A stretch of 64,000 nucleotides of DNA from Escherichia coli. GTDB taxonomy: Bacteria > Pseudomonadota > Gammaproteobacteria > Enterobacterales > Enterobacteriaceae. A model generated the notes under the pieces. The model worked only from the letters and a program-made list of their open reading frames with translations. It was not told where the DNA came from and ran no database searches. The position numbers and the translations under genes were made by a program. This document shows positions 4,949 through 51,439 of this stretch, in pieces. The first letter of the stretch is position 1. Each line of letters begins with the position of its first letter. The stretch lies in assembly GCF_024502345.1 (NCBI RefSeq), contig NZ_JALDNN010000001.1. One strand, given 5' to 3'.

Positions 4949-4953
4949 TGACG

Positions 4954-4985
4954 TATAACCGGATGACGTTTCGCGCCATCCGGTT
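4954..4985. terminator. stem-loop between convergent deoR and dacC
   Basis: inverted repeat ataaccggat...atccggttat. Confidence 0.45.
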
Positions 4986-4994
4986 ATCAGAAGA

Positions 4995-6197: not shown

Positions 6198-6443
6198 AAA
6201 TGCCACCCGAGTATCCATTCAAAAAAAATACGTTATATCGCCGTATGATAAGTTCGGTGATTAATAACGCACACACAAACTTAAAGAAACCGTAAGTTGG
6301 TAAAGTTTTTAAAGTTTATGCAATATCCTGCCGCTTCGCTGCTTCTGGTGTCATTTTTTTGCCAGCTGTTGCTTAAAAGTTAACTTTACTTCACCATCGG
6401 AGTCCTGTTCAGCCTGTGGCTGCCTGTCGGAAAAGGGGTGAGT

Positions 6444-8182: not shown

Positions 8183-8261
8183 AACGCCTCCGGATTGACT
8201 CTGGCTTAAAGCGTAGTCAGTGGAGGAGATAACAAATTCATTTTTACAAAAACTTAAACAT

Positions 8262-8288
8262 GAAGGGGGAGACGCTTTCTCCCCCTTA
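8262..8288 (-). terminator. stem-loop immediately downstream of bssR
   Basis: inverted repeat aaggggga...tccccctt. Confidence 0.5.
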
Positions 8289-8292
8289 GTTT

Positions 8293-8676
8293 TCAGGCCT
8301 TCTCAAGCATGGCGTGCTTCTGCAGGCTCTGGATACTCAGCGTTAAGCTCATCAGACAATTTTCAAGCTTATCGGCGTTGACGGTAATAACAGTCGGGCA
8401 ATCATGGTGCCCACTCATCAAACATACTGCGGCTGCCGCTAATGCTTCTTCAGCATGATGAAGAGCACTCCACTCTTCCTGATCCAGATGAAGATTCAAC
8501 CGCAGCGATTTATCGTGCAGTTCGCGATTCAGTTTAAAAAAGTTATCTCGTAGATGATTGCTTTCGCTGACGGACATGTATCCTTTTGCCTTCCTCAGTT
8601 GCACGTATGCAGCGAGGTCAACGCGTGCGTCGATCAACCGGTTCAGCAGATCGATTCGCTGTCTGTCAACGAACAT
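8293..8676 (-). CDS. bssR: biofilm regulator BssR (YliH)
   Basis: 127 aa from internal ATG of the 138-aa track ORF; recognised by sequence recall. Confidence 0.82.
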   Translation of the reverse strand: MFVDRQRIDLLNRLIDARVDLAAYVQLRKAKGYMSVSESNHLRDNFFKLNRELHDKSLRLNLHLDQEEWSALHHAEEALAAAAVCLMSGHHDCPTVITVNADKLENCLMSLTLSIQSLQKHAMLEKA

Positions 8677-8888
8677 ACTTCGATCCTCCTCTTTCCAGCC
8701 TTGTTGCAATTAAATAGTATGGCTATTTTTTGAGCAAAATGCTGTCCAGGATCAATTCTTCACGCCGAATTAACAAAATTTACATTTCCTTCGCCTCCGC
8801 CAGCGAATGAGATTGCGATACAAATTTTATCCAGAACTCTGTAGAATCCCTGCCCTGACCTTTCCTGTAACTGAATATTTTTTAAGCT

Positions 8889-10214
8889 ATGAGCAAAGTA
8901 ACTCCCCAGCCGAAAATCGGCTTTGTTTCCCTTGGCTGTCCGAAAAACCTTGTCGATTCAGAGCGTATTCTCACCGAACTCCGCACTGAAGGTTATGACG
9001 TGGTACCGAGCTATGACGATGCGGACATGGTGATCGTCAACACCTGCGGCTTTATTGACAGCGCGGTACAAGAATCACTGGAAGCCATTGGTGAAGCGTT
9101 GAATGAAAACGGCAAGGTAATTGTGACCGGTTGTCTGGGGGCAAAAGAAGATCAGATCCGCGAAGTCCACCCGAAAGTGCTGGAAATCACCGGGCCTCAT
9201 AGCTATGAGCAGGTTCTGGAGCACGTTCATCACTACGTGCCAAAACCGAAACACAACCCATTCCTGAGCCTGGTGCCAGAACAAGGTGTGAAACTGACGC
9301 CGCGTCATTATGCCTATCTGAAAATTTCGGAAGGCTGTAATCACCGCTGCACCTTCTGCATTATTCCGTCTATGCGCGGCGACCTGGTGAGCCGTCCGAT
9401 TGGCGAAGTGTTAAGTGAAGCGAAACGTCTGGTAGATGCGGGCGTTAAAGAGATTCTGGTGATCTCGCAGGATACTTCCGCCTATGGCGTTGATGTTAAA
9501 CATCGTACTGGCTTCCACAACGGCGAGCCGGTAAAAACCAGCATGGTCAGCCTGTGCGAACAGTTATCGAAACTGGGGATCTGGACACGTCTGCACTACG
9601 TTTACCCTTATCCGCATGTGGACGACGTCATCCCACTGATGGCAGAAGGCAAAATCCTGCCGTATCTGGACATTCCGTTGCAGCACGCCAGCCCGCGCAT
9701 TCTCAAACTGATGAAGCGTCCGGGTTCTGTAGATCGCCAACTGGCGCGCATCAAACAGTGGCGCGAAATCTGCCCGGAACTGACCCTACGCTCAACCTTT
9801 ATTGTCGGCTTCCCTGGCGAGACAGAAGAAGATTTCCAGATGCTACTCGACTTCCTGAAAGAAGCGCGTCTGGATCGCGTTGGCTGCTTTAAATACAGCC
9901 CGGTTGAAGGTGCAGACGCCAATGCCCTGCCTGACCAGGTTCCGGAAGAAGTTAAAGAAGAACGCTGGAACCGTTTCATGCAGCTGCAGCAGCAGATTTC
10001 CGCCGAGCGCCTGCAAGAGAAAGTGGGCCGTGAAATTCTGGTGATTATCGACGAAGTGGACGAAGAAGGCGCGATTGGTCGCAGCATGGCAGATGCACCG
10101 GAAATCGACGGCGCGGTTTATCTCAATGGTGAAACCAACGTTAAGCCGGGTGATATCCTGCGTGTGAAAGTCGAGCACGCCGATGAGTACGATTTGTGGG
10201 GTAGCCGGGTTTAA
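8889..10214 (+). CDS. rimO: ribosomal protein S12 methylthiotransferase RimO (radical SAM, MTTase)
   Basis: 441-aa ORF; CxxxCxxC radical-SAM motif (CNHRCTFC) plus N-terminal MTTase and C-terminal TRAM domains. Confidence 0.94.
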
Positions 10215-10220
10215 TTAATT

Positions 10221-10250
10221 CAGGCCGGGCAAAATCATTTGTCCGGCCTG
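10221..10250. terminator. bidirectional terminator between convergent rimO and dgcI
   Basis: inverted repeat caggccgggc...gtccggcctg. Confidence 0.55.
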
Positions 10251-10260
10251 CGAATAATGA

Positions 10261-11589
10261 TTACTGCCAGCTAATCTGAGCCCTGCCGTTTTTCTTACTC
10301 TTATACAGCCGCTCATCCGCCAGCATTTTCAAGCGTTCGACGGTGGTACATTCATTTGAATGCGCTACACCGATACTGGTACTTAAATTAATGCTTCCCA
10401 CCTGGAAATGAACGATTTCTTTTAGAATCGATAGCAACTCTTCCAGCGTTCCACCCGTATAAATCACCGCAAATTCGTCACCGCCGAAGCGGTAGATTTT
10501 ACCTTTATCTACCGGGATCTGTGATTTAAGGATTTTCACCACTTTCATCAACACTTCATCGCCCAGCAAATGACCGAAGGTGTCGTTAATGTTTTTGAAT
10601 TTATCGACGTCAAACAGGCACAAATAACCGCCTTTTTCCGGCAGCGCTTTTAAATCTTCGTCAAAGGATTTTCTGCCCATTGCTTTGGTCAGGTCGTCCA
10701 GGAACGCCGAGTTATACATACTGTAGAGTTTTTTGACATCGGCAGCCGAAAAGAAAAGCCCGCCATCCAGTACGCGTTCAAAATGGTTATTAATGATGGC
10801 TTCTTTCTCCACAATACCACGATTAATCACTCTGCGTACCAGATAGAGGCAACTGGTACCCGATATCACTGCCACCAATGCGGCAAAGAAAATAATCAAT
10901 GTACAGACCCGCAAATAAACATCTTTTTTATATGCAAATACGTACAATCCGGTCGGCAAATAGGCGAAGTGCTCCATCGCTTCCGAAACGGTGAAGATGG
11001 CGTTTTTAGCATTATATTCATCACCGGTCACCGGTTTACCGTTCTTAAATAGAGAGAACATCAGGTTCTCGCTGTCCATCGCCAGCGATTTTGACAGTAA
11101 AGAAAAACGCTCCAGACCAAGCAAAAATATCAGACTACGATTGTGAGTTACCGGATAGAGGTAATAGACGAAGGTTTTACCGTCAAAAGAGATAAACCCT
11201 GTATTTTTGACATGTCGATACTTCACAACCTGCATAATATCTGCACAATAATTTTTCTCGAACTCCTTTACCTGAATACATTCGTCACTGGAAATCAGAT
11301 AAGGACCGACATCGTACAAATAAGAGGGGGAAACCGAGTCGGCGTAAGCTGTGCGCAAACCAACCAACAGCTGTTCCTCCGTGGGATTTAGCGTGTTGAT
11401 AAGATCAATTGCCACGCTACGCCGATATTCAGCAATATTTGCCACCGCAAAAGCAGTATCAATAACGGACTGTTTCAGGCTATACACCCGTTCCTTTACC
11501 ATTTGAGTGTAGATCCCGCAGGCTACTGCTGAAATCATGATAAAAATCAGCAGACTGACTGTAAGTACGAACTTATTGATTCTGGACAT
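10261..11589 (-). CDS. dgcI: membrane-anchored diguanylate cyclase DgcI (YliF), GGDEF domain
   Basis: 442-aa ORF; N-terminal TM segments, C-terminal GGDEF domain with RFGGDEF motif. Confidence 0.9.
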
Positions 11590-11907
11590 ACGTAAACTAC
11601 TCTTTTACTAATTTTCCACTTTTATCCCAGGCGGAGAATGGCATGGGTTTCTGGTACAGATACCCCCGAGCCTGAACACATCCTAATTTAATTAATTCGC
11701 GCGCAACGTCTTCGCTCTCTACGCCTTCCGCAATCACCGGGATCCGGTTATAGCGTGCCAGATCGAAAATAATGCGCACAATTTTTCCCGCAGTACCGAA
11801 AATATCGCCGGTAAATTGCGAGTCCACCTTTATGCTGTCTGGATTAATTTCATAAAAACGTTTCAGGTTTGACAAACCGGTGCCAAAGTCATCAATCGAT
11901 ATCCGTA

Positions 11908-11916
11908 CCCCTTGTT
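11908..11916. repeat. IS1 target-site duplication, copy 1 (CCCCTTGTT)
   Basis: 9-bp sequence identical to 12685-12693 immediately outside the IS1 ends. Confidence 0.9.
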
Positions 11917-11931
11917 GGTAATGACTCCAAC

Positions 11932-12435
11932 TTATTGATAGTGTTTTATGTTCAGATAATGCCCGATGACTTTGTCATGCAGCTCCACCGATTTTGAGAA
12001 CGACAGCGACTTCCGTCCCAGCCGTGCCAGGTGCTGCCTCAGATTCAGGTTATGCCGCTCAATTCGCTGCGTATATCGCTTGCTGATTACGTGCAGCTTT
12101 CCCTTCAGGCGGGATTCATACAGCGGCCAGCCATCCGTCATCCATATCACCACGTCAAAGGGTGACAGCAGGCTCATAAGACGCCCCAGCGTCGCCATAG
12201 TGCGTTCACCGAATACGTGCGCAACAACCGTCTTCCGGAGCCTGTCATACGCGTAAAACAGCCAGCGCTGGCGCGATTTAGCCCCGACGTATCCCCACTG
12301 TTCGTCCATTTCCGCGCAGACGATGACGTCACTGCCCGGCTGTATGCGCGAGGTTACCGACTGCGGCCTGAGTTTTTTAAATGGCGGAAAATCGTGTTGA
12401 GGCCAACGCCCATAATGCGGGCGGTTGCCCGGCAT
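11932..12435 (-). CDS. insB: IS1 InsB (transposase catalytic part, expressed as InsAB' by -1 frameshift)
   Basis: 167-aa ORF overlapping insA in the -1 frame. Confidence 0.88.
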
Positions 12436-12629
12436 CCAACGCCATTCATGGCCATATCAATGATTTTCTGGTGCGTACCGGGTTGAGAAGCGGTGTAAGT
12501 GAACTGCAGTTGCCATGTTTTACGGCAGTGAGAGCAGAGATAGCGCTGATGTCCGGCGGTGCTTTTGCCGTTACGCACCACCCCGTCAGTAGCTGAACAG
12601 GAGGGACAGCTGATAGAAACAGAAGCCAC
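12354..12629 (-). CDS. insA: IS1 InsA (transposition inhibitor, N-terminal part of InsAB' transposase)
   Basis: 91-aa ORF with zinc-finger (CPSC...CSHC) and HTH; A6C frameshift motif near its 3' end (12371-12380 on + strand). Confidence 0.9.
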
Positions 12630-12684
12630 TGGAGCACCTCAAAAACACCATCATACACTAAATCAGTAAGTTGGCAGCATCACC

Positions 12685-12693
12685 CCCCTTGTT
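12685..12693. repeat. IS1 target-site duplication, copy 2 (CCCCTTGTT)
   Basis: 9-bp sequence identical to 11908-11916. Confidence 0.9.
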
Positions 12694-14899
12694 TACGCAG
12701 TTGTTCAATATTGAGATAAAAATGTTCATTAATTCGCTCGATCACGGTTTCAGTGATCTCAACACAGAGGCTGTTCGCCTTCAGGCCATTTTCTTTCATG
12801 ATGGTGGTAAAACGCTCATGAAAGTGCGGTTCGTTTAACTGCCAGGGCGAAACATTAATATGCAGTAAGAAATCATCCTTCAGCGACGCACGCTGACTAA
12901 AATGTCTGAATTCACCCATTGCCGTTTTAATAATCTGATAACCCAGCTCAATGATAAACCCGATATCTTCAGCAATGGTAATGAACTTCAGCGGTGAAAT
13001 GATCCCCCGCTCCGCAGAAACCCAACGGCACAACGCCTCCGCGCCCAGAATGGCGCGGGTGTTAATATCAACGATCGGTTGATAGACGAGGAATAGTTCG
13101 CCAATTTCCATTGCATGGCGAATATTACGCGCAATCCAGATATTCTCTTCTATTTCATTGAGTTTCGCGTCATCACAGAAAATAAACTCGGAGAACATAT
13201 GGTCACGGATACTGGAAATCGCCAGTTTCAGTTTTTCTGCGTAACTCCAGGCGTTTTCCCCCTGCAAAGGTTCACAAATGGCAGACTTATGGATGCGCAG
13301 ATTGCGGTAGCCAAAGCTGCTGTCAAAATCGTTTACCATCGCTATTTTACGGGTAAATGTCTGTACATTTTCCCGACACAGAAGTAAATAGAGATCGGCA
13401 TTGAATGTCACGATATCGCAGCATTGCGCATATTTCTCGGCAATTCGCTGACACAATTTCCTGACGATTTTATTGCGTTCATCAACACCAAACACCGCTT
13501 CCACGGCTTCCAGACCACACAGTTTGATGATCCCCACAGCCAGATACTGATTATTGTTGGACTCAATAATCGCCATATTTTTAATAAAACCGCTTTCCTG
13601 ATCGTAAGAGATCAGTGAGAGCAATTTATTTGACCGTTCAATTTCGGCATCTTTCATTTCCGCGATCGAATTTTTGATGCTGATAATCTCTTTCGCATCG
13701 CCTTCGCGAATTTTCAGAGCCTCGATCTGATCCGTTGAGTCGGGCAAAAACGCCAGCGTATTAACCAGCTCGGTCATTTCAGAAAATTGCCGACGGAACA
13801 CACGAGTGGTCATGAAATATACCACCAGCAACACGATAATAATGAACGCAAACGGTAGATAAAAAAGTTTATCTGATGCGTTCAATAAATTACCGCCAGG
13901 ATAATAAAAATAGATTTCGAACAATGCATTATTTGGCACTGCTGATGTCTTTGCAATATACTCCGTATCGACAGAATCAATAATATTATAATTACCTTCG
14001 CTATTATAAATAATCAGTTTTTCACGAGCGAGTTGATTCTTGGCAATGATCTCATGACCTTGTTTCAAAAATAGAACTTCATCATTAGCGCTGATTTGAT
14101 CAAGATACTCGTTCAAATACCGCCAGTTTAAATCGACATGAATTTTATCTACCGCTAACAAATCGTGATCTTTGCCGTTGATACGTAGCGTAAAAGAGAT
14201 ACATTTTTTACCCGGACGATCAAAGCAATTGTATGCCGGATTCCAGCTGTTGTTAGAGTCATCTGAAGCCACCGACCACGGTCGTTTCGATGGGTTAAAA
14301 TCGGCAAAAATAACCCGCCCTGACTCGTCGACAAGCGGTCCATTTACTTGTTCCTGATGATAAACAACGATTTTATCATTCGCCCTCCGTGAAAAGAGAT
14401 AATATTTATTATCATCAAGTACCAGTCCCACCGAGTCTAAAAATGGCATCATTTCCATTTTCAGAATCACGGCGCGTTGAATCTCCTCTGTATTTTTTAA
14501 TAAATACAGTGAGTCCTTTAATGTCAGGGCCGAACGTTCAATATCTTTAAAGAAATAGCCAACGTTTTTCTGAATAAGTTCAAAGCGGCTATCGGCACGT
14601 TTTACCGCGCGTTCCGATACCAGTTGATAGTTAATGATGAAAAAAAGACCAATAAATGACAGTGCTGCCAATAAAAATAAAATTATCAGCCTTATCTTTA
14701 TCTTTTCGTATAAACTCAGCATGTTAATACATTTAACAAAATAACTATCTGAACGCTGTGCCGCTGCAAAAATAGTCCCTTGCTGCGGCTTTTTAACCAA
14801 ATTACCCGATTCTACAAAATCAGCAGAAAGTTACAACACTTGCTTAGGGCAATAATTTCCTGTGAGGTGATTACCCTTTCAAGCAATATTCAAACGTAA

Positions 14900-15811
14900 C
14901 TATCCTTTAATTTTCGGATCCAGCGCATCGCGTAAACCATCGCCCAACAAATTGAACTCCAGTACGGTCAGAAAAATAGCCAGGGCCGGAAAAACAGCGA
15001 CATGCGGCGCGATAACCATATCCGCTCGTGCCTCATTGAGCATTGCTCCCCACTCTGGTGTCGGCGGCTGCGCACCGAGGCCGAGAAATGACAGGCTGGC
15101 GGCAGAGATAATCGAGGTGCCAATGCGCATGGTGAAAAACACCACGATAGACGAGACGGTCCCAGGCAAGATATGACGCAATAAAATGGTCATATCGCTG
15201 GCACCAATACTGCGTGCTGACTCAATAAAGGTTTGCTGTTTCAACACCAGCGTGTTGCCGCGCACCAGTCGGGCAAACGCGGGGATGGAAAAAATGGCGA
15301 CTGCGATAATCACGTTAGCAATGCCGCTTCCCAACACCGCAACAACAGCGATCGCCAGTAAAATACCCGGGAAGGCAAACAGCACATCGCAAATGCGCAT
15401 GATCAGCCGATCCCACCAGCCTTCATAATATCCAGCCAACAAGCCCAGCAACGTCCCGATCGCCGCACCGATAAACACGGCAAACACGCCCGCCGCCAGC
15501 GAGATTTGCGCACCAACCAGGACACGGCTGAAAATGTCGCGCCCCAGTGAATCGACGCCAAACCAGTGCTGCAAAGAAGGTCCGTTATTCAGATTGTCAT
15601 AATCAAAATAATTTTCGGCGTCATAGGGAGCGATCCAGCGTGCAAAAATGGCCACCACAATCAATAAAATAACGAATAATGCGGCGGTCATCGCCATATG
15701 CTGACGGCGAAATCGTCGCCAGAATTCATGCCACGGTGTACGCACCTGGTCAGGTTTGACCAGTGGCATGGCGTTTAACACCGCCTGACGTCGCCAGTTA
15801 AATAGTCGCAT
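14900..15811 (-). CDS. gsiD: glutathione ABC transporter permease GsiD
   Basis: 303-aa ORF, DppC/OppC-type permease. Confidence 0.9.
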
Positions 15812-15813
15812 CC

Positions 15814-16734
15814 TTACTTGTACCTGATAGCCGGGTTAATGGCGGCGTAAAGCACATCCACCACTAAGTTGATAAGAATAAATTCCAGCGAGAAAAGCAG
15901 AATTTCCGCCTGAATCACCGGGTAATCGCGCATTTCTACGGAGTCAACGAGTAAGCGTCCAAGTCCGGGCCAGTTGAAAACTTTCTCCACCACGATAGAA
16001 CCACCGAGCAAAAAGCCAAACTGTAAGCCCATCATGGTCACTACCGGGATCATCGCGTTACGTAGCCCGTGTTTGAGGACAACCCAGGTTTCGCTCACCC
16101 CTTTCGCCCTCGCGGTACGCATATAATCTTCGCTTAAAACATCGACAAACGACGCGCGGGTAAAGCGCGCCATCACGGCTGCCACTGCCGCGCCGAGCGT
16201 CAGGGAGGGTAAAATGTAGTGCTGCCAACTGTCTGCTCCCACGGTAGGCAGCCAGCCCAGTTCAACGGAGAATACCTGAATTAAAAGCATCCCCAGCGCA
16301 AATGCCGGAAACGAGATCCCCGACACCGCAATGGTCATACTCAATCGATCCGGCCAACGATTACGCCAGACGGCGGCGATAATTCCCGCCGCCATACCAA
16401 ATATCACCGCCCAGACCATACTGGTTATGGTCAGCCACAGCGTTGGCATAAAGCGGCTGGCAATCTCATCGGCAACCGGACGACGCGACACCATCGACAG
16501 GCCAAAATCCCCCTGCACAGCATTGCTGATATAGTGCCAGAACTGGTGATACAGCGGCTGATCCAACCCCAGCTGCTGACGCACCAGTTCTATAACCTGC
16601 GCATCAGCTTCGGGCCCGGCAATCAATCGCGCCGGATCGCCGGGCAGCATATGCACAAATAAAAACACCAGCACCGAGACGATAAACAGCGTCGGAATCA
16701 ACCCCAGTAAGCGTTTGATAACGTAATTAAGCAT
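15814..16734 (-). CDS. gsiC: glutathione ABC transporter permease GsiC
   Basis: 306-aa ORF, DppB/OppB-type permease. Confidence 0.9.
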
Positions 16735-16751
16735 TCCACTCCCTGCGTTGC

Positions 16752-18290
16752 TTATTGCAAATCCGCGTCTTCAAAGCTGAAGCCGGTGTCTGGCATGATC
16801 CAAAAACCGGTCAGGTTTTTACTGTGTGCCGACACCAGTTTTTCTACCACCAGCGGGATCCACGGCGACTCTTGCCAGATGATATCCTGCGCCGCCTTAT
16901 ACAAGCGGGTCTTTTCCGCCGGATCATTAGTTTTCAGTGCCTGAGCCAGGAAGTCGTCCACCTGTTTATTGCTGTAAAATGCGGTATTAAACAGCGTCGG
17001 TGGCCAGTTTTGCGAGGCGAACAGTGGCGATAGCGCCCAGTCCGCTTCGCCGGTTGAAGCCGACCAGCCAGTGTAGAACATCCGCACGCCGCTCTCTTTT
17101 TGCCCTTTACCTTCAACTTCTGCCGCCCGCTGTCCGGCATCCATCGCGGTCACCTGGGCTTTAATCCCGACCTGCGCTAACTGCTGCTGGGTAAATTGCA
17201 GCACTTTCTGCGCGGTGCTGTGGTTATGTGACGACCACAGCGTGGTACTGAAACCGTTGGGATATCCCGCCTCTTTCAGTAATTCGCGCGCTTTCACTGG
17301 ATCGTAAGGCCACGGTTTATAACTTTGCGCGTAGGCGATACTTGGCGGTACCACACCAGTAGCTGGCGTTGCATAGCCCGCAAAGGCAACTTTCACCAGC
17401 GCCGGACGGTTAATGGCGTAATTCAGCGCCTCACGGACCTTCGGGTTATCGAACGGCTTTTGCGTCACGTTCATACTGATATAACGCTGCATAATTGACG
17501 GACTGGCCATCAACTCGATATTTTTGTTTTTCTCCAGCAGTGTGGCCTGCTCGTAGGGAATGGGGAAAGCAAACTGCGCTTCACCGGTTTGCAGCATTGC
17601 CGCGCGGGTGTTGTTATCCGCCACCGGACGCCAGGTTATGCTGTCCAGTTTGGGCAATCCTGGCTGCCAGTAACCCGCGAATTTTTTCACCTTCACAAAA
17701 TCGGTCTGATTCCAGGTATCCAGTTCATACGGTCCGGTTCCCACCGGATGAAAACCAATCTCCTTGCCATATTTTTCCAGCGCTGCCGGTGAAATCATCG
17801 CGGTCGCCGGATGGGCAAGAATATTAATAAACGCTGAGAACGGCTGTTTGAGGGTAATCTTTACCGTTGTCGGATCGATCGCCTCCGTTTTGGCAATATT
17901 CTTATACAGGTTATAGCGTTTAAGATGATTCGCCGGATCGCTGGCCCGGTCCAGATTCGCTTTTACCGCCACTGCGTTGAAATCGATGCCATCCTGGAAT
18001 TTAATTCCTTCCCGCAATTTCACGGTGTAAGTAATGCCGTCATCGGAAACGGTATAACTCTCCGCCAGCACGTTTTTCAGTTTCATCTCTTTATCCAGAC
18101 CGAACAGCCCCTGGTAAAACGATTTCGCTACGGCCTGAGATAACGTGTCATTTGCGTCATACGGATCGAGCGTGGTGAAATTCGATCCTACCGCCACCAC
18201 CACATCTTTGGCAGCGAATGCACAAGATGCCATCAACGCTGTCGCAATGCCCAGCGCCACTAACCCACTACGGTGTACAGCTCTTGCCAT
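16752..18290 (-). CDS. gsiB: glutathione-binding periplasmic protein GsiB
   Basis: 512 aa from ATG at 18290 (track ORF is extended by 89 codons); signal peptide then family-5 solute-binding protein. Confidence 0.9.
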
Positions 18291-18309
18291 TTTATTCTCC
18301 GCCTGAATG

Positions 18310-20181
18310 TTATCTACGCATGAATGCGTATTCTGATTGTGGTTGTGCGACGTAATGCCCCGGCCCGACGCATTGCAACGAGACGGCTGCCACCTCTTCG
18401 CCACGCAGATGAATATTGCTGGGAAGATCGTCCGACAGCAGTACACGCTGCGGTCGTTGTCGGGACGGTTCCGCGACCGGAACTGCCGCCAGTAATTTAC
18501 GCGTATAAGGATGCTGCGGGTTTTCGAAGACCGCGCGCCGTGGACCAATTTCAACAATTTGCCCGAGATACATCACCGCCACACGATGACTAATCCGCTC
18601 TACCACGGCCATATCGTGGGAGATAAACAGATACGCAATGCCGAAATCACGCTGGAGATCGAGCAACAAGTTGATAATCTGCCCGCGAATAGAAACATCC
18701 AGCGCCGAAACGGCTTCGTCGGCAATGATCACTTTTGGATTCAATGCCAACGCGCGAGCAATGCAGATGCGCTGGCGCTGACCGCCGGAAAACTCATGCG
18801 GGTAACGCCAGGCATGTTCAGGTAACAGGCCCACGCGCTCCAGCAACCACGCAACGCGTGCAGCCGCGTCTTTACCTGGCAATAAACCGTGTACACGCAG
18901 CGGTTCGATAATCGAATCACCGATGGTCTGACGTGGGTCCAGCGAAGCGTAAGGGTCCTGAAAAATAAACTGAATATCCCGGCGCAATGCCTGAAGTTTG
19001 CCGGGTGACAAGGTATCGATTCTCTGACCGTTAAAGATAATTTCGCCGCCCTGCGATTCGACCAGGCGCAGCAACGCCCGCCCGGTAGTGGATTTACCGC
19101 TGCCAGACTCACCAACCAGCGATAGCGTTTCGCCAGGCCAGAGATCAAAACTGACTTTCTCAACGGCATGCACTTCCCGCGTTACGCGATTCAACAAACC
19201 GCTGCGCAAAGGGAAACGGGTGACCAGATTACGCACCCGTAAAACAGGTTCGCCATCCACCACCGTTTTCTGCTCGATGGGGGGTTCCTGTTTCGCTGGA
19301 TGTTCAAGCGATATCAACGGGAAACGTCGGGGATAATCTAACCCTTTCATCGCACCAAGTTGCGGAACAGCAGCTAACAGCGCACGGGTGTAAGGATGTT
19401 GCGGTGCATGAAAAATCTGTTCGACGGTACCCGTTTCCACCGCCTCGCCCTGATACATCACCAGTACCCGATCGGCAATCTCTGCCACCACGCCCATATC
19501 GTGAGTGATAAAGATAACGCCCATCGACATCTCTTTTTGCAATACTTTGATTAATTGCAGGATCTGCGCCTGAATAGTGACATCCAGCGCGGTGGTTGGC
19601 TCATCGGCAATCAGCACCGCCGGGCGGCATGACAGCGCCATCGCAATCATCACTCGCTGGCGCATCCCGCCAGAGAGTTGATGCGGATAACGTGAAAGAA
19701 TGGTTTGTGCCTCAGGAATGCGTACCTGATCCAGCATCCGCTTCGCCTCGACCATCGCTTCTTCACGACTGGCGTTCTGATGCAGACGAATTGATTCGGC
19801 AATCTGTTCACCCACAGTAAATACCGGGTTCAGCGATGTCATCGGCTCCTGAAATATCATCGCCATATCCGCACCGCGAACATGGCGCATTTGTGCAGCG
19901 CTCTGCTCGCTAAGTTCAATCACTTCGCGACTGCGCCGCTGCAACAGCATTTTATCGCACTGTACTAAACCGCCCGCCTGTTCCAACAGGCGCATCAATG
20001 CCAACGCAGTCACTGACTTACCGGAGCCGGATTCGCCAACAATTGCCAGCGTCTCACCGCGTTGCAGACTAAAAGAGAGATTGCGGACCGCAGCTATTTT
20101 CTGCTGGTCCTGCATAAAGGCAATATTCAGATTTTCAACCGCCAGCACATTACCGGCATCAAGTTCATCACTGTGTGGCAA
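18310..20181 (-). CDS. gsiA: glutathione ABC transporter ATP-binding protein GsiA (two fused ABC domains)
   Basis: 623 aa if initiated at the TTG at 20181, giving a 14-nt overlap with the iaaA 3' end; two Walker A (GESGSGKS) motifs. Confidence 0.85.
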
Positions 20182-23332: not shown

Positions 23333-23415
23333 AGGCCTGATAAGACGCGACAAGCGTCGCATCAGGCATTTGCTCCAGACGCCAGATGCGGCGTGAACGC
23401 CTTATCTGGCCTACG
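23333..23415. repeat. REP elements (BIME-type pair) downstream of moeB
   Basis: aggcctgataagacgcgacaagcgtcgcatcaggc and gccagatgcggcgtgaacgccttatctggcctac, typical REP palindromes. Confidence 0.8.
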
Positions 23416-23499
23416 GTTCGGGCACAGATTTCCAAGCGCGGCAGGCATCGGTGCACTCCGCCACGTCATCAGCAATTTATGAGGATGCAGAACGTCCGG

Positions 23500-24162
23500 T
23501 TAAATCGACGTTCTGCCAAACGCTCCCTGCCAGTCCTGCTCAAACTTCGCCACAGCGGCTTCCACCGCCGGATAGCTAATCATCTGTTGTGCCACATCCA
23601 GTGGCAGAGTAATTGATTCACATCCTGCCAGTAAGCAGTCCAGCGCCTGACGCGGGGTTTTGAAACTCGCTGCCAGCACTTTCGCCTGCGGCGCATGCAT
23701 TTTCAATAACTGGTGTAAGTCGATCACAGTCTGAATGCCGCTACCGCCCTGAGCATCAATACGATTAACGTAAGGCGCAACATATTCCGCACCTGCCAGC
23801 GCCGACAGCAGCCCTTGTGCTGCGCCATATACCGCGGTTCCCAGCGTTGGAATCCCTTCCGCTTTTAACATCTTAATAGCTGCCAGCCCCTCGGCGGTCA
23901 CCAGAACTTTCACCACGATATCCGCAATAATAGAACGCAATTTACGTGCGTCATTCACCATCCCTTCAGCAGTGGTAGCCATTACCTGGGCAAACAGACG
24001 CCCCTGACCGCCCATCGCTTCATGAAGTTGCGGAAGCACAACATCCAGCGTTTTTTTACCCGCGGCGATAATGCTTGGGTTAGTGGTCACACCCGCCAGC
24101 GGAAAAATACGTGACAGCGCCTTCACCGCAACAACGTCTGAAGTATCCAGATACAGTTCCAT
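23500..24162 (-). CDS. fsaA: fructose-6-phosphate aldolase 1 (transaldolase-like)
   Basis: 220 aa from ATG at 24162 (track ORF extended by 24 codons). Confidence 0.9.
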
Positions 24163-24292
24163 AACCATCCTCAAAATGTACTTTTTGTCTGAATGTAGAC
24201 TATCACGGGAAAACTCTCTGAACAGTTGACGCACATCAATCTAACTTTCATTCGAAAGTATTTTAATGTTTGAACGAAACAGAGAGGCAACT

Positions 24293-25192
24293 ATGATTTT
24301 CAATATTCAGCGCTACTCGACCCATGATGGCCCCGGTATCCGCACGGTCGTATTTCTTAAAGGCTGTTCGCTGGGCTGCCGCTGGTGTCAGAACCCGGAA
24401 AGCCGCGCCCGCACGCAGGATCTGCTGTATGACGCACGACTGTGTCTGGAAGGCTGCGAGCTGTGCGCTAAGGCCGCGCCGGAAGTGATTGAGCGCGCGC
24501 TGAATGGTTTGCTTATTCATCGGGAAAAGTTAACCCCGGAGCATCTGACGGCGTTAACCGACTGCTGTCCGACACAGGCATTAACCGTGTGTGGTGAAGT
24601 GAAAAGCGTTGAGGAGATCATGACGACCGTTCTGCGCGATAAACCGTTTTACGATCGCAGCGGCGGCGGTTTAACGCTTTCGGGTGGTGAACCCTTTATG
24701 CAGCCGGAAATGGCGATGGCGCTACTGCAAGCCAGCCACGAGGCAGGCATTCATACTGCGGTAGAAACCTGTCTGCATGTGCCGTGGAAATATATCGCCC
24801 CTTCTCTGCCCTATATCGATCTGTTTCTTGCCGATTTAAAACACGTTGCCGACGCGCCGTTTAAACAGTGGACCGACGGTAACGCCGCCAGAGTGCTGGA
24901 TAACCTGAAAAAACTCGCCGCAGCGGGCAAAAAAATCATTATCCGCGTGCCGCTGATTCAGGGCTTTAATGCCGACGAAACCTCTGTAAAAGCCATTACC
25001 GATTTTGCCGCCGACGAGCTGCACGTTGGCGAAATTCATTTTCTGCCCTACCACACGCTGGGCATCAACAAATATCACTTACTTAATCTGCCCTATGACG
25101 CCCCGGAAAAACCGCTTGATGCGCCAGAACTGCTCGACTTTGCCCAGCAGTATGCCTGCCAGAAAGGGTTAACCGCGACCTTACGAGGATAA
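24293..25192 (+). CDS. ybiY: glycyl-radical enzyme activating protein (radical SAM) YbiY
   Basis: 299 aa from ATG 24293 preceded by AGAGAGG; an in-frame ATG at 24266 is an alternative start; CxxxCxxC motif and extra Cys clusters. Confidence 0.85.
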
Positions 25193-25197
25193 CAACC

Positions 25198-27630
25198 ATG
25201 ACCACACTGAAACTGGACACGCTCAGCGACCGCATTAAAGCGCACAAAAATGCGCTGGTGCATATTGTGAAACCGCCAGTCTGTACCGAGCGCGCGCAGC
25301 ACTATACCGAGATGTATCAACAACATCTCGATAAGCCGATCCCGGTACGTCGCGCGCTGGCACTGGCGCATCACCTGGCGAATCGCACCATCTGGATCAA
25401 ACACGATGAGTTGATCATTGGCAACCAGGCAAGCGAAGTTCGCGCCGCGCCGATCTTCCCGGAATATACTGTCTCGTGGATCGAAAAAGAGATTGATGAT
25501 CTGGCAGATCGTCCCGGTGCTGGCTTTGCGGTGAGCGAAGAGAACAAACGCGTTCTGCATGAAGTGTGCCCGTGGTGGCGCGGTCAGACCGTACAGGATC
25601 GCTGCTACGGCATGTTTACCGATGAGCAAAAAGGTCTGCTGGCGACCGGAATCATTAAAGCGGAAGGCAATATGACCTCCGGCGATGCGCACCTGGCGGT
25701 GAATTTCCCGCTGCTGCTGGAAAAAGGTCTTGATGGTCTGCGTGAGAAAGTAGCGGAACGTCGCTCGCGCATCAATCTGACGGTGCTGGAAGATTTACAT
25801 GGCGAACAATTCCTGAAAGCGATTGATATCGTGCTGGTGGCAGTCAGTGAACACATTGAACGTTTCGCTGCCCTGGCGCGTGAAATGGCTGCTACCGAAA
25901 CTCGCGAAAGCCGTCGCGATGAACTGCTGACGATGGCAGAAAACTGCGATCTTATCGCCCACCAGCCGCCGCAGACTTTCTGGCAGGCGCTGCAACTGTG
26001 TTACTTCATCCAATTGATTTTGCAGATCGAATCTAACGGTCACTCGGTATCGTTTGGTCGTATGGACCAGTATCTCTACCCGTACTATCGCCGCGACGTT
26101 GAACTCAACCAGACGCTGGATCGCGAACACGCCATCGAGATGCTGCATAGCTGCTGGCTGAAACTGCTGGAAGTGAACAAGATCCGCTCCGGCTCACACT
26201 CAAAAGCCTCTGCGGGAAGTCCGCTGTATCAGAACGTTACCATTGGCGGACAAAATCTGGTTGATGGTCAACCAATGGATGCAGTGAATCCCCTCTCTTA
26301 CGCGATCCTCGAATCCTGCGGTCGCCTGCGTTCCACTCAGCCTAACCTCAGCGTGCGTTACCATGCAGGAATGAGTAATGATTTCCTCGACGCCTGCGTA
26401 CAGGTGATCCGTTGCGGCTTCGGGATGCCGGCGTTCAACAACGACGAAATCGTGATCCCGGAATTTATTAAACTCGGTATTGAACCGCAGGACGCTTACG
26501 ACTACGCAGCGATTGGTTGTATCGAAACCGCCGTCGGTGGCAAATGGGGCTATCGCTGTACCGGCATGAGCTTTATCAACTTCGCCCGCGTGATGCTGGC
26601 GGCGCTGGAAGGCGGGCGTGATGCCACCAGCGGCAAAGTGTTCCTGCCACAAGAAAAAGCGTTGTCGGCAGGCAACTTTAACAATTTCGATGAAGTAATG
26701 GACGCGTGGGATACGCAAATCCGTTATTACACGCGTAAATCAATCGAAATCGAATATGTCGTCGACACCATGCTGGAAGAGAACGTACACGATATTCTCT
26801 GCTCGGCGCTGGTGGATGACTGTATTGAGCGAGCGAAAAGTATCAAGCAAGGCGGCGCGAAATATGACTGGGTTTCTGGCCTGCAGGTTGGCATTGCCAA
26901 CCTCGGCAACAGCCTGGCGGCAGTGAAGAAACTGGTATTTGAACAGGGCGCGATTGGTCAGCAACAGCTGGCTGCCGCACTGGCGGATGACTTCGATGGC
27001 CTGACTCATGAGCAACTGCGTCAGCGGCTGATTAACGGTGCGCCGAAGTACGGCAACGACGATGATACCGTCGATACGCTGCTGGCTCGCGCTTATCAGA
27101 CCTATATCGACGAACTGAAACAGTACCATAACCCGCGCTACGGTCGTGGTCCGGTTGGCGGCAACTATTACGCGGGTACCTCGTCTATCTCCGCTAACGT
27201 ACCGTTTGGCGCGCAAACTATGGCAACACCGGACGGGCGTAAAGCCCACACCCCGCTGGCAGAAGGCGCAAGCCCGGCCTCCGGTACTGACCATCTTGGC
27301 CCTACTGCGGTCATTGGCTCGGTGGGTAAACTGCCTACGGCAGCGATTCTCGGCGGCGTGTTGCTCAACCAGAAACTGAATCCGGCAACGCTGGAGAACG
27401 AATCTGACAAGCAGAAGCTGATGATCCTGCTGCGCACCTTCTTCGAGGTGCATAAAGGCTGGCATATTCAGTACAACATCGTTTCCCGCGAAACGCTGCT
27501 GGAGGCGAAAAAACATCCGGATCAGTACCGCGATCTGGTAGTGCGTGTCGCGGGTTATTCCGCCTTCTTCACCGCGCTCTCTCCAGACGCTCAGGACGAT
27601 ATCATCGCTCGTACTGAACATATGCTGTAA
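25198..27630 (+). CDS. ybiW: glycyl radical enzyme (pyruvate formate-lyase homolog) YbiW
   Basis: 810-aa ORF with C-terminal glycyl radical motif (RVAGYSA). Confidence 0.92.
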   Translation: MTTLKLDTLSDRIKAHKNALVHIVKPPVCTERAQHYTEMYQQHLDKPIPVRRALALAHHLANRTIWIKHDELIIGNQASEVRAAPIFPEYTVSWIEKEIDDLADRPGAGFAVSEENKRVLHEVCPWWRGQTVQDRCYGMFTDEQKGLLATGIIKAEGNMTSGDAHLAVNFPLLLEKGLDGLREKVAERRSRINLTVLEDLHGEQFLKAIDIVLVAVSEHIERFAALAREMAATETRESRRDELLTMAENCDLIAHQPPQTFWQALQLCYFIQLILQIESNGHSVSFGRMDQYLYPYYRRDVELNQTLDREHAIEMLHSCWLKLLEVNKIRSGSHSKASAGSPLYQNVTIGGQNLVDGQPMDAVNPLSYAILESCGRLRSTQPNLSVRYHAGMSNDFLDACVQVIRCGFGMPAFNNDEIVIPEFIKLGIEPQDAYDYAAIGCIETAVGGKWGYRCTGMSFINFARVMLAALEGGRDATSGKVFLPQEKALSAGNFNNFDEVMDAWDTQIRYYTRKSIEIEYVVDTMLEENVHDILCSALVDDCIERAKSIKQGGAKYDWVSGLQVGIANLGNSLAAVKKLVFEQGAIGQQQLAAALADDFDGLTHEQLRQRLINGAPKYGNDDDTVDTLLARAYQTYIDELKQYHNPRYGRGPVGGNYYAGTSSISANVPFGAQTMATPDGRKAHTPLAEGASPASGTDHLGPTAVIGSVGKLPTAAILGGVLLNQKLNPATLENESDKQKLMILLRTFFEVHKGWHIQYNIVSRETLLEAKKHPDQYRDLVVRVAGYSAFFTALSPDAQDDIIARTEHML

Positions 27631-27775
27631 TCTCTTCGGCCCGGCTGCGGCGTCGCCGGGCTAAATCATTCACATCATCAATTTCATCCTTACTTTCATT
27701 CGAAATATAATTTGTGCTCTGCGTCACATTGTTATTACACTGTTACGGTTTCATTTTCGAGCCAGGAGCACACCT

Positions 27776-28591
27776 ATGAGCGTAAAAGTTATCGTCACAG
27801 ACATGGACGGTACTTTTCTTAACGACGCCAAAACGTACAACCAACCACGTTTTATGGCGCAATATCAGGAACTGAAAAAGCGCGGCATTGAGTTCGTTGT
27901 CGCCAGCGGTAATCAGTATTACCAGCTTATTTCGTTCTTTCCTGAGCTAAAGGATGAGATCTCTTTTGTCGCGGAAAACGGCGCACTGGTTTACGAACAT
28001 GGCAAGCAACTGTTCCACGGCGAACTGACCCGACATGAATCGCGGATTGTTATTGGCGAGTTGCTAAAAGATAAGCAACTCAATTTTGTCGCCTGCGGTC
28101 TGCAAAGTGCATATGTCAGCGAAAATGCCCCCGAAGCATTTGTCGCACTGATGGCAAAACACTACCATCGCCTGAAAGCTGTAAAAGATTATCAGGAGAT
28201 TGACGACGTACTGTTCAAGTTTTCGCTCAACCTGCCAGATGAACAAATCCCGTTAGTGATCGACAAACTGCACATAGCGCTCGATGGCATTATGAAACCC
28301 GTCACCAGTGGTTTTGGCTTTATCGACCTGATTATTCCCGGTCTACATAAAGCAAACGGTATTTCGCGGTTACTGAAATGCTGGGATCTGTCACCGCAAA
28401 ATGTGGTAGCGATTGGCGACAGCGGTAACGATGCGGAGATGCTGAAAATGGCGCGTTATTCCTTTGCGATGGGCAATGCTGCGGAAAACATTAAACAAAT
28501 CGCCCGTTACGCTACCGATGATAATAATCATGAAGGCGCGCTGAATGTGATTCAGGCGGTGCTGGATAACACATCCCCTTTTAACAGCTGA
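27776..28591 (+). CDS. ybiV: HAD-superfamily sugar phosphatase YbiV
   Basis: 271-aa ORF, DMDGTF and GDSGND motifs; paralog of ybjI. Confidence 0.9.
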
Positions 28592-28598: not shown

Positions 28599-28632
28599 AC
28601 CGGAGCCGTGCGCTCCGGTTTTCCCTTCTTTT
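28599..28632 (+). terminator. rho-independent terminator after ybiV
   Basis: accggagc...gctccggt hairpin followed by T-rich tract. Confidence 0.55.
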
Positions 28633-28736
28633 TACATCCTGTACATCACATCAAATCATTAAACTTGCATTAACTTATTTATAACTTATATTGTCACATG
28701 CAAATCAGAATGGTTTCGAATGAAAGTTAATGAGAG

Positions 28737-30008
28737 GTGGTTATAGCTTCTACTTTTACCAGCGACACATTGCCTGCCGATCACAAAGCAGCTATCCGTC
28801 AGATGAAGCACGCGCTGCGGGCGCAGCTTGGCGACGTCCAGCAGATCTTTAATCAGCTAAGCGATGACATTGCCACGCGAGTGGCTGAAATCAACGCACT
28901 CAAAGCACAGGGCGATGCCGTCTGGCCGGTGCTGTCTTATGCCGATATCAAAGCAGGTCATGTTACTGCAGAGCAGCGCGAACAGATTAAACGTCGCGGT
29001 TGTGCGGTGATAAAAGGCCATTTCCCCCGCGAACAAGCGCTAGGCTGGGATCAGTCGATGCTGGACTATCTGGACCGCAACCGCTTTGACGAGGTCTACA
29101 AAGGCCCCGGCGATAATTTCTTCGGGACGCTCAGCGCTTCACGTCCCGAGATTTACCCCATCTACTGGTCGCAGGCGCAAATGCAGGCCCGCCAGAGTGA
29201 AGAAATGGCGAATGCGCAGTCGTTTCTCAATCGTCTGTGGACATTTGAAAGTGATGGAAAGCAATGGTTTAACCCGGATGTGAGCGTCATCTACCCTGAC
29301 CGTATCCGCCGCCGTCCGCCCGGAACGACCTCCAAAGGTCTTGGAGCGCATACCGACTCCGGGGCGCTGGAACGCTGGCTGCTTCCAGCGTATCAGCGCG
29401 TTTTCGCCAACGTCTTTAATGGCAATCTGGCGCAATATGATCCCTAGCATGCGGCACATCGTACGGAAGTTGAAGAGTACACGGTGGACAACACCACCAA
29501 ATGTTCCGTGTTTCGGACATTCCAGGGCTGGACAGCGCTCTCTGATATGCTGCCTGGTCAGGGGTTGCTGCACGTTGTGCCCATTCCTGAAGCCATGGCG
29601 TACGTACTGTTACGTCCGCTGCTTGATGATGTGCCGGAGGATGAACTGTGCGGCGTAGCGCCCGGAAGAGTGTTGCCGGTATCAGAGCAATGGCATCCAC
29701 TGTTAATTGAGGCGTTAACCAGCATTCCAAAACTCGAGGCCGGAGACTCCGTCTGGTGGCACTGCGACGTCATCCATTCCGTTGCCCCCGTTGAAAATCA
29801 ACAGGGTTGGGGCAACGTGATGTACATTCCTGCGGCACCGATGTGCGAGAAAAATCTTGCCTACGCGCACAAGGTGAAGGCCGCACTGGAAAAAGGCGCA
29901 TCGCCGGGCGACTTCCCGCGCGAGGACTATGAAACAAACTGGGAAGGACGCTTTACGCTTGCCGACCTCAACATTCACGGTAAGCGAGCGTTGGGCATGG
30001 ATGTTTGA
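28737..30008 (+). pseudogene. ybiU: ybiU (DUF1479 protein) with an in-frame TAG at 29445-29447
   Basis: ORFs 28737-29447 and 29484-30008 are in the same frame with no other stop between them; together they give a ~423-codon product. Confidence 0.75.
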
Positions 30009-30061
30009 GAGTTAATGGAAGTGAATTGATGTGGGATTAAGAAAATCGATTCGACGTTACT

Positions 30062-30210
30062 CAGATTGCTGACAAGTGCGCTTTCTTAATGCCTGATGCG
30101 GCGTTAACGCCTTATCTGGCCTACAAAGTCCTGCAGATTCAATATATTACAGGTACTGCGTAGGCCTGATAAGCGTAGCGCATCAGGCTATTTTGCATTT
30201 GTCATCAGCC
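30062..30210. repeat. composite REP/BIME cluster, paralogous to 55240-55390
   Basis: REP palindromes gcctgatgcggcgttaacgccttatctggcctac and gtaggcctgataagcgtagcgcatcaggc with shared flanking blocks. Confidence 0.8.
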
Positions 30211-33037: not shown

Positions 33038-34156
33038 TTACCAGGCCGGGATCATAACTAACAAAACGTATCCCACCAGCGCCGCCCACAACAGCATCGG
33101 TATTGAATAGAGATGGAAACGCCACCAGATGCGGCGATCGTTCGCCATACGTAGCGCAATCAAATTTGCCAGCGATCCTGGTAATAAACCAAAGCCCCCC
33201 ACGTTTACCGCCCATACCAGTAATAAAGACGGCGGCACATAGTTCAGCAACAATATGGTACTCGGCACGTTACTGATCACCTGCGATAAACCGATTGCCG
33301 TTAACCATAACCCGGGTTCAGATAGATGACTCACGTTACCCAACACGCCTTGCAACGCTGGAAGCTGGGTCAGTAAATGGACGTCGATAAACATCGCCAT
33401 AAACACCAGCAGCAGCGTCCAGTCCACACTGAGCACCACGCGACGTGCCAGCAGCGCAAAGCCCACCGCCACAATCACCAGTCCCCACAGCTCTTGTTTT
33501 AACTCCAGCGCCGTCAGAAAGACGATATACAGTCCCAGACAACTCCACACCAGCCGCGGTTTCCACTCCGGCGTTTGCACCCCCGTATGGTATTGCAGCG
33601 CCTTTCCAGGGAAACAACACCAGCACAGGAGCAGGAGCGTCAGCATCATTGCGCCAGCCAGCGGTGCCATTTGGGCAATAAATCCGGCAAACGAAAGACC
33701 AGAACGTCCCCAGATAAGAATATTTTGCGGGTTGCCAATTGGCGTCAGTAGCGAACCAGCGTTGACTGCCAGCGCCTCAAAAATAATCAGCCGATTAACC
33801 GGGATCTCACACAGTCTTTTTAGCGTGATAGTCAGCGGAACAACAATAAACAGCGCGACATCGTTGGTCAGAAAGGTAGAAAGCAGCGCCGCCGCCAGCA
33901 CCATAAACATCGCCAGCCGACGCTCCGTAGCAAAGCGGCGCACCATTTTGCGCCCCAGCACATCAAAATAACCGCTTAACTCCACACCTTTGGTCAGCAG
34001 CATCAGGCCGCTTAAGGTGATGATGGTGTGCCAGTCGATAGCAGCAGGCCAGGATTTCGGTGCAAAGGGCACGAAAACGCTTAATCCGATACCAACAAGA
34101 ATTAATAACTGAAAAAAACGATCGCCTTGCAGCGTGCGTAAAAAAGGCAGGCTCAT
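33038..34156 (-). CDS. ybiR: putative anion transporter YbiR (ArsB/NhaD permease superfamily)
   Basis: 372-aa polytopic membrane protein. Confidence 0.88.

Positions 34157-50224: not shown

Positions 50225-51439
<1,215 letters not shown>

Follow-up and report, generated by a model that had tools for sequence, protein, structure and literature searches.

The ybiY-ybiW glycyl radical operon in an Escherichia coli chromosome segment: enzyme class, probable regulatory sites and gene context

The ybiY-ybiW operon of Escherichia coli encodes the glycyl radical enzyme (GRE) YbiW and its radical S-adenosylmethionine (SAM) activating enzyme YbiY, and is described here as found in a 64,000-nt stretch of Escherichia chromosome (referred to as the window; coordinates are given in window numbering unless another genome is named). 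The system is already known and has been characterised both biochemically and structurally. A 2025 review (PMC12441222, summarising Ma et al., JACS 2024;146:26187) describes YbiW and its paralogue PflD as cleaving 1,5-anhydroglucitol-6-phosphate (1,5-AG6P) and 1,5-anhydromannitol-6-phosphate, respectively, to 1-deoxyfructose-6-phosphate after phosphorylation by the phosphotransferase system (PTS); E. coli thereby grows on 1,5-anhydroglucitol (1,5-AG), and both pathways are anaerobic. An initial annotation of the window, made from its sequence, had considered the substrate of YbiW not firmly established, a view that this literature makes out of date. Structures have been deposited for YbiW (PDB 8ID7 and 8YJN, 'Probable dehydratase YbiW') and PflD (PDB 8YJO, 'Probable dehydratase PflD'), and YbiW protein was found strongly increased in the proteome of Shigella dysenteriae in the pig gut.

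As the biochemistry and structures of YbiW have been published, little is left here as discovery, and the significance of the pair, which gives gut Enterobacteria an anaerobic, radical-based use of 1,5-AG, is likewise in print. 1,5-AG is a dietary polyol and a clinical marker, and its 6-phosphate is toxic in human G6PC3/glycogen storage disease type Ib (GSD-Ib). The regulatory logic is partly in the literature; the present analysis sharpens it (YciT operator, probable FNR site), points to a possible tie with SgrR/SgrS in Yersinia and Rouxiella, and contributes as new details the operator sequence, the FNR-like box, the position of yciT within the cluster of Serratia and further genera, the sgrS arrangement in Yersinia and the lesions of the window strain. 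Taken with the published work, ybiY-ybiW very probably provides the radical step of the anaerobic 1,5-AG (1-deoxyglucose) pathway, repressed by YciT and probably activated through an FNR-like box.

Among the described relatives, YbiW/YbiY of E. coli K-12 (b0823/b0824) have the same genes, the same flanking genes and all three operators in common with the window, which differs by an FsaA substitution (P87L), a ybiU pseudogene and an extra repetitive extragenic palindromic (REP) unit between moeB and fsaA. E. coli PflD/PflC form a paralogous pair: PflD is a GRE of 37.9% identity to YbiW with a GCVE loop, the RVAGYS motif, its own activase and fsaB nearby, and the same product is reported for it in the review, but its substrate is the C2 epimer. 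PTS components of its own (frwCBD, ptsA) and gldA are encoded in the pflD locus, where a YciT-type operator is absent; the ybi cluster lacks a transporter and includes ybiV and ybiU. The GRE 1,2-eliminases, that is Clostridium butyricum glycerol dehydratase (PDB 1R8W), propanediol dehydratase (PDB 5I2A), CutC and HypD, resemble YbiW in fold, in the Gly, Cys and Glu positions, in the ESNGHS segment and in the radical 1,2-elimination of C-O or C-N beside a carbinol. They differ in that the leaving group of YbiW would be the ring ether oxygen of a phosphorylated anhydro-hexitol, with a net ring-opening isomerisation and not the water loss of the eliminases, and YbiW scores under every equivalog cut-off for glycerol dehydratase, propanediol dehydratase, CutC and HypD. 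With PflB/PflA the pair shares the glycyl radical superfamily, a radical-SAM activase and anaerobic expression; PflB has a Cys-Cys pair and performs C-C cleavage with coenzyme A (CoA), whereas YbiW has no Cys-Cys pair and would perform C-O elimination.

Enzyme class and proposed reaction of YbiW

The feature is an ordinary E. coli ybiY-ybiW operon. Of 5426 complete E. coli genomes, 5425 contain a match to window positions 24293-27630 (95-99.8% identity), in which the genes are annotated as ybiY and ybiW (RefSeq-type labels 'glycyl-radical enzyme activating protein' and 'glycyl radical protein', respectively); the window as a whole is an Escherichia chromosome segment collinear with K-12 823656-886923 in reverse orientation (~99% identity). 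ybiY ends 5 nt ahead of ybiW. A longer ybiY open reading frame (ORF) from 24266 exists, and the annotated start at 24293 has a ribosome-binding site before it; since the upstream ATG is not conserved in an alignment of 80 relatives, 24293 is the right start. The boundaries of the initial annotation, including this start, were exact, and its description of the two proteins and of their neighbours, fsaA (divergent) and ybiV (HAD phosphatase), agrees with the coordinates and family scores reported here and below.

A motif scan of YbiY located the radical-SAM signature CX3CX2C at Cys25/29/32, which is predicted to hold the SAM cluster, and six further Cys (51, 55, 58, 91, 92, 100) lie in a ferredoxin-like insert, which is a candidate holder of auxiliary Fe-S clusters (Cys51-100). 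On NCBIfam TIGR02494 (glycyl-radical activating protein) YbiY scored 370 bits (cut-off 174). It adjoins ybiW as a dedicated activase would, and stands directly upstream of it in all 80 orthologous loci of a context scan that took one genome per species (YbiW orthologues of 85-99% identity from Escherichia, Citrobacter, Enterobacter, Klebsiella, Kosakonia, Serratia, Yersinia and other genera).

The C-terminal glycyl radical motif of YbiW, RVAGYS (residues 783-788, Gly786), conforms to the superfamily pattern RVxG[FWY] and aligns with RVAGYSA of 1R8W. The catalytic loop GCIE, with Cys441 and Glu443, has the G-C-x-E form of the GRE 1,2-eliminase/dehydratase class, and AIGCIET of YbiW aligns with IIGCVEP of glycerol dehydratase 1R8W; in this class the Glu two residues past the thiyl Cys is the general base. 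The alignment with 1R8W (E = 1.6e-163, 549 bits) further pairs SGDAHLAV with NGVGHVSV (G-x-x-H) and IESNGHSVS with IESNGHSIS. In the glycerol dehydratase structure G-x-x-H and ESNGHS are substrate-hydroxyl binding segments. Together, the conserved Cys/Glu loop, ESNGHS and G-x-x-H are what a 1,2-elimination beside a hydroxyl-bearing carbon would need. On NCBIfam TIGR01774 (PFL2/glycerol-dehydratase glycyl radical subfamily) YbiW scored 1409 bits (cut-off 678); the nearest solved non-orthologues were B12-independent glycerol dehydratase, propanediol dehydratase, CutC and HypD (E = 1e-163 to 1e-110). PDB 8ID7 and 8YJN matched YbiW over residues 1-810 (1855 bits) with only natural or engineered point differences. 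The substitutions relative to K-12 are E184K, A245T, H474R and D769E, none of them within the catalytic motifs.

That YbiW is a redundant pyruvate formate-lyase (PFL; formate C-acetyltransferase) with no tie to its neighbours, the scenario that the initial annotation itself had named as fatal to its proposal, is hardly credible. K-12 and some PDB entries still bear the names 'putative pyruvate formate lyase' or 'formate C-acetyltransferase', fold and glycyl motif are common to YbiW and PFL (1H16, E = 1.7e-43), and a Shigella proteome study put YbiW in one group with PflB and TdcE. YbiW is nevertheless not a redundant PFL, because its GCIE loop has a single Cys in place of the adjacent Cys-Cys pair of PFL and because it reached 162 bits on the PFL equivalog TIGR01255, where the cut-off is 994; on PRK09983 it likewise stayed below the cut-off (582 vs 1109 bits). 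The solved dehydratases and eliminases match YbiW far better than PflB does, the fsaA linkage is conserved, and the literature gives an activity on 1,5-AG6P. On the active-site motif and the curated cut-offs the PFL assignment was rejected.

With the function taken from the literature, YbiW is a 1,5-AG6P C-O lyase ('dehydratase'), and the following course of events is proposed. PTS uptake would turn 1,5-AG into its 6-phosphate, as in the published pathway. The [4Fe-4S] cluster of YbiY (Cys25/29/32) would cleave SAM and put the radical on Gly786 of YbiW, as family knowledge and the motifs suggest. By analogy with the conserved dehydratase residues, the Gly786 radical would give a thiyl radical on Cys441, which would take a hydrogen atom from substrate C2; Glu443 as the base would deprotonate the C2 hydroxyl, and the adjacent C1-O5 ring ether would leave, like the hydroxyl in diol dehydratases. 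The ring would then open to the product named in the literature, 1-deoxy-fructose-6-phosphate, a 1-deoxy-2-ketose. In formal terms the 'dehydratase' YbiW would on this mechanism be a ring-opening C-O lyase or an isomerase. FsaA or FsaB reportedly splits the product to glyceraldehyde-3-phosphate and hydroxyacetone, and the hydroxyacetone is said to be reduced by GldA; the gene context supports FsaA, a class I aldolase whose catalytic residue is Lys85, as the enzyme that would act here. The window FsaA scored 443 bits on NCBIfam NF009296 (cut-off 306) and 274 bits on TIGR00875 (cut-off 246), with Lys85 present.

A different or broader substrate range for YbiW, comprising other 1,5-anhydro- or deoxy-hexitol phosphates or else small diols such as glycerol and 1,2-propanediol, with 1,5-AG6P as one in-vitro activity, appears improbable. 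It would fit the closest non-orthologous structure, the B12-independent glycerol dehydratase (549 bits), the fine tuning of specificity in the clade that is implied by a paralogue taking the C2 epimer, and the presence in the same regulon of YbiU and YbiV, which are without an assigned role. The linkage to a fructose-6-phosphate-type aldolase and the glucose-type transport and kinase genes of Rouxiella (see below), however, fit a substrate of hexose-6-phosphate size and not a C3 diol; diol-utilisation, microcompartment and aldehyde dehydrogenase genes are absent from the vicinity of the cluster; and the published assignment and the deposited structures speak against another substrate.

Probable regulatory sites and gene context

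The 14-mer ACTTTCATTCGAAA occurs in three exact copies in the 64 kb of the window, all within the ybiY/ybiV/ybiU cluster (O1, O2 and O3 in Table 1), with no further match at up to 2 mismatches anywhere in the window. In K-12 (77 kb examined) the 12-mer core was present only at the ybiY, ybiV and ybiU sites, and the K-12 pflD/frw/fsaB locus, yciT itself and sgrS gave no operator match at up to 1 mismatch. Among the 80 orthologous loci an operator (up to 2 mismatches) lies ~50 bp upstream of ybiY in 76, i.e. in ~76 species of Enterobacterales, and recurs before ybiV and ybiU wherever those genes occur.

The DeoR-family regulator YciT gave peaks at ybiY and ybiV in chromatin immunoprecipitation with exonuclease treatment (ChIP-exo; Gao et al. 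2021, PMC8464067), and deletion of yciT raised ybiY, ybiU and ybiW by 7.7, 7.0 and 3.5 log2 units, respectively (PMC8464067), a derepression that makes YciT a repressor. According to a Reg-Seq preprint (10.1101/2025.05.13.653802), activity of the ybiYW promoter is confined to anaerobic conditions; the same work reports YciT enriched on the ybiY promoter by DNA-affinity mass spectrometry at a site overlapping the RNA polymerase footprint, and an activator footprint ~15 bp upstream. In agreement with these ChIP-exo, RNA-seq and pull-down data, ACTTTCATTCGAAA and its longer form at ybiY, ACTTTCATTCGAAAGT, are probably the YciT operator, through which YciT would repress from the sites before ybiY, ybiV and ybiU; the two papers that report YciT binding seem not to state the operator sequence itself. 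The ChIP-exo coordinates lie ~100-150 bp off the motif, given an assumed shift of ~778 bp between two K-12 genome versions, so that the peaks count as locus-level support only; the preprint notes a similar discrepancy of ~100 bp between the ChIP-exo peaks and its own site (10.1101/2025.05.13.653802).

Upstream of O1 lies an FNR-like box, TTGACgcacATCAA, the TTGA and ATCA parts of which are at least 95% conserved in an upstream alignment of 80 sequences. Its centre is 19 bp upstream of the operator centre, a spacing that agrees with that of the activator and YciT footprints in Reg-Seq. FNR is a candidate for the Reg-Seq activator, and the box is probably the site of anaerobic activation of the ybiYW promoter.

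Across the 80 loci a divergent fsaA is found in 62, ybiV downstream of ybiW in 59 and ybiU in 57. YbiV scored 217 bits on TIGR00099 (Cof-type HAD-IIB; cut-off 137). Its link to ybiYW is one of co-regulation (shared operator, YciT regulon), and any role in the pathway would be putative; of the anaerobic sugar-phosphate cleavage that the initial annotation had proposed for ybiYW and its neighbours, the part linked to fsaA stands, anhydro-sugars having been named in it, whereas for ybiV it holds at the level of co-regulation only.

The cluster of Rouxiella (Table 1) additionally contains a ROK sugar kinase, a GldA-family dehydrogenase (508 bits), a glucose/fucose-type transporter of the major facilitator superfamily (MFS) and ptsG (908 bits, above the equivalog cut-off), genes that would supply the uptake/phosphorylation and hydroxyacetone reduction and, with fsa, the aldol cleavage required by the published pathway. 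Ten of the 80 loci, from Serratia, Buttiauxella, Franconibacter, Brenneria, Rouxiella, Mangrovibacter and others, have a yciT-like gene within the cluster; for the Serratia copy the YciT model was the best match (415 bits, cut-off 450). The neighbourhood of the Serratia cluster is the one in which yciT stands alone in E. coli, where yciT is 480 kb from ybiYW. On the simplest reading, yciT and the operon would once have been adjacent and later have been separated in the Escherichia-Klebsiella-Enterobacter lineage.

Several points weigh against the assignment of ybiY-ybiW to the 1,5-AG pathway under YciT and FNR control. The substrate assignment rests on a citing review and the names of PDB depositions, and the NCBIfam and RefSeq names are still generic ('glycyl radical protein'). 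The E. coli cluster is without a transporter or kinase of its own, fsaA is not adjacent in 18 of the 80 loci, and the searched literature contains no paper naming ybiY together with FNR. In the window strain the P87L substitution of FsaA, near the catalytic lysine, may impair the local aldolase step; FsaB could substitute.

Table 1 Features of the ybi cluster in the window and of selected orthologous loci. Positions in the last three rows refer to the loci named, with their handles from the context scan in brackets. aa, amino acids.
Feature	Position	Strand	Description
ybiY	24293..25192	+	Radical-SAM glycyl-radical activating enzyme, 299 aa; stop 25192; 0 aa differences from K-12
ybiW	25198..27630	+	Glycyl radical enzyme, 810 aa; 4 natural aa differences from K-12
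Operator O1, ACTTTCATTCGAAAGT (probable)	24244..24259	+	Imperfect palindrome ACTTTC-N4-GAAAGT; 14-mer at 24244-24257; overlaps ybiYW promoter
Operator O2, ACTTTCATTCGAAA (probable)	27692..27705	+	Upstream of ybiV; conserved in orthologous loci
Operator O3, same 14-mer inverted (probable)	28714..28727	-	16 bp upstream of ybiU start; conserved in orthologous loci
FNR-like box, TTGACgcacATCAA	24226..24239	+	One mismatch from TTGAT-N4-ATCAA (pattern match)
fsaA	23500..24162	-	Fructose-6-phosphate aldolase 1, 220 aa; divergent from ybiY; annotated fsa
ybiV	27776..28591	+	Cof-type HAD-IIB sugar phosphatase, 271 aa; downstream of ybiW
ybiU	28743..30008	+	DUF1479/Gig2-like; pseudogene in window strain; intact 421-aa coding sequence in K-12 and DS26-1
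GC-rich hairpin	27638..27662	+	8 nt past ybiW stop, no T-run; -17.4 kcal/mol, z = -2.5
Terminator-like hairpin and T-run	28599..28619	+	3' of ybiV
Yersinia alsatica (L087)	7310-14008		sgrR, ybiY-ybiW, Set-family efflux gene; same arrangement in L085, L086 and L088
Serratia sp. Ag1 (L089)	4018-19481		rnb, cstA, fsa, ybiY, ybiW, yciT, araD-like, osmB, yciH, pyrF, lapBA, pgpB
Rouxiella aceris (L091)	5074-19056		DeoR, ybiU-like DUF1479, sgrT-like 52-aa ORF, fsa, ybiY-ybiW, ROK kinase, GldA-family dehydrogenase, second DeoR, sugar MFS, ptsG

The hairpin past the ybiW stop is probably a weak terminator or a 3' stabiliser of the mRNA; an intrinsic-terminator scan made no call there. A scan for consensus promoters and terminators around the operon was uninformative, its matches being no more frequent than in shuffled sequences.

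The sgrR-sgrS locus and sugar-phosphate stress

In Yersinia alsatica, Y. massiliensis and Y. frederiksenii, fsaA, ybiV and ybiU are missing beside ybiYW, and the gene order is thiBPQ, sgrR (SgrR equivalog, 1048 bits), ybiY-ybiW, a Set-family sugar efflux gene (528 bits) and leuDCBA. This is the arrangement of the E. coli sgrR-sgrS-setA locus with ybiYW at the place of sgrS. The 125-bp spacer between sgrR and ybiY aligns with the E. coli sgrR-sgrS spacer across the SgrR-binding and promoter region. In the Y. alsatica locus a relaxed Rfam search detected an SgrS core at 12454-12558 (34.5 bits, gathering score 37, E = 7e-7), which begins 21 nt past the ybiW stop and comprises the seed GAGTAATGGTGT and a terminator; at gathering thresholds Rfam gave no SgrS in the Yersinia, Rouxiella or Serratia loci, and the relaxed search gave no SgrS core in the Rouxiella locus. 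Yersinia ybiYW thus appears, from the alignments, to occupy the place of E. coli sgrT, with the sgrS promoter before it and the SgrS base-pairing domain after it. In Rouxiella an sgrT-like ORF of 52 aa stands between ybiU and fsaA, with an sgrS-promoter-like sequence upstream of it.

Glycolysis cannot process 1,5-AG6P, an analogue of glucose-6-phosphate, which makes a link with the glucose-phosphate stress response plausible. It is doubtful that relief of sugar-phosphate stress, and not catabolism, is the main role of the module, with YbiYW and FsaA destroying anaerobically the 1,5-AG6P trapped after uptake of 1,5-AG through the glucose PTS, YbiV dephosphorylating it and the whole joining the SgrR/SgrS response. 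The position of Yersinia ybiY-ybiW between sgrR and the efflux gene, with the sgrS-promoter-like sequence before and the SgrS core after it, the sgrT-like ORF and ptsG flanking the Rouxiella cluster, and the operator before ybiV, a Cof-type HAD phosphatase gene, would all suit such a role. Set against this, what the review (PMC12441222) reports is growth on 1,5-AG, i.e. catabolism; no paper in the searched literature links anhydroglucitol with SgrS; sgrS does not lie close to the cluster in E. coli, and its locus is without an operator-like site; the Yersinia SgrS match is slightly under the Rfam gathering score; and adjacency is not regulation. The catabolic 1,5-AG pathway is retained as the preferred assignment of the operon.

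We regard as tentatively possible a wider scheme, in which the five-gene YciT regulon (fsaA, ybiYW, ybiV, ybiU) would handle trapped 1,5-AG6P in two modes and be wired to glucose-phosphate stress, with the GRE route acting only in anoxia, YbiV as a relief valve and YbiU as a possible oxygen-dependent route, and in which ybiYW would have replaced sgrT in the sgrS transcript of some Yersinia. If true, a single SgrR-controlled RNA would in these Yersinia both encode the radical enzyme and bear SgrS at its 3' end.

Strain-specific changes and other observations

Of 55 K-12 genes mapped onto the window, only pdeI and ybiU are broken. In ybiU the start codon is changed from ATG to ATA (28743-28745) and W235 from TGG to TAG (W235*, 29445-29447). 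A 61-mer of the TAG allele was found in 4 complete E. coli genomes only; the K-12-type ybiU probe matched only 4085 of the 5426 genomes, and an allele of 82% identity occurs in one E. coli representative. A literature search on DUF1479 yielded no functional assignment, and the structures 2DBI, 2DBN and 2CSG are likewise without an assigned function.

FsaA P87L (codon 87, 23902-23904, minus strand) lies close to the Schiff-base lysine, Lys85, at a distance of two residues. All 63 other FsaA sequences compared (K-12 and 62 orthologues) have Pro87, and the window fsaA P87L 61-mer was found in 0 of 5393 complete E. coli genomes carrying fsaA. Relative to K-12, fsaA and ybiV together have 9 amino acid changes in 22 nucleotide differences, as against 49 in 550 for the rest of the window (Fisher p ~1e-4); the corresponding figures are 4 in 58 for ybiW and 0 in 1 for ybiY, both of which seem to be well conserved. 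Part of the fsaA/ybiV changes lie on the K-12 branch, e.g. at position 73, where most relatives share the Arg of the window. The accessory genes of the regulon may be decaying in the window strain while the radical enzyme is kept, for which these counts are suggestive only.

The interruption of pdeI (yliE, cyclic-di-GMP phosphodiesterase) is due to a 768-bp IS1 at 11917-12684 with a 9-bp target duplication, CCCCTTGTT; the IS1 half of the pdeI junction matches annotated IS1A/IS1B transposase genes. Between moeB and fsaA, a 100-bp insertion relative to K-12 (23353-23452) consists of palindromic units of the REP/bacterial interspersed mosaic element (BIME) type; Rfam naRNA4 matched at 23334-23411 (79.6 bits) and a second time at 50001-50071. 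An intergenic repeat of ~155 bp is present in copies ~85% alike at 30056-30210 (ybiU/ybiT) and 55235-55390 (near rhlE), the latter including an Rfam ES036/CssrF match at 55304-55346; a third copy, at K-12 845602-845740 between ybiO and glnQ, is absent from the window at ~42060. The gene hcxB (50223-51305) has a 3-bp in-frame deletion relative to K-12, and ybiR (33044-34156) has 6 amino acid changes in 15 nucleotide differences, with its last few codons not aligning with those of K-12.

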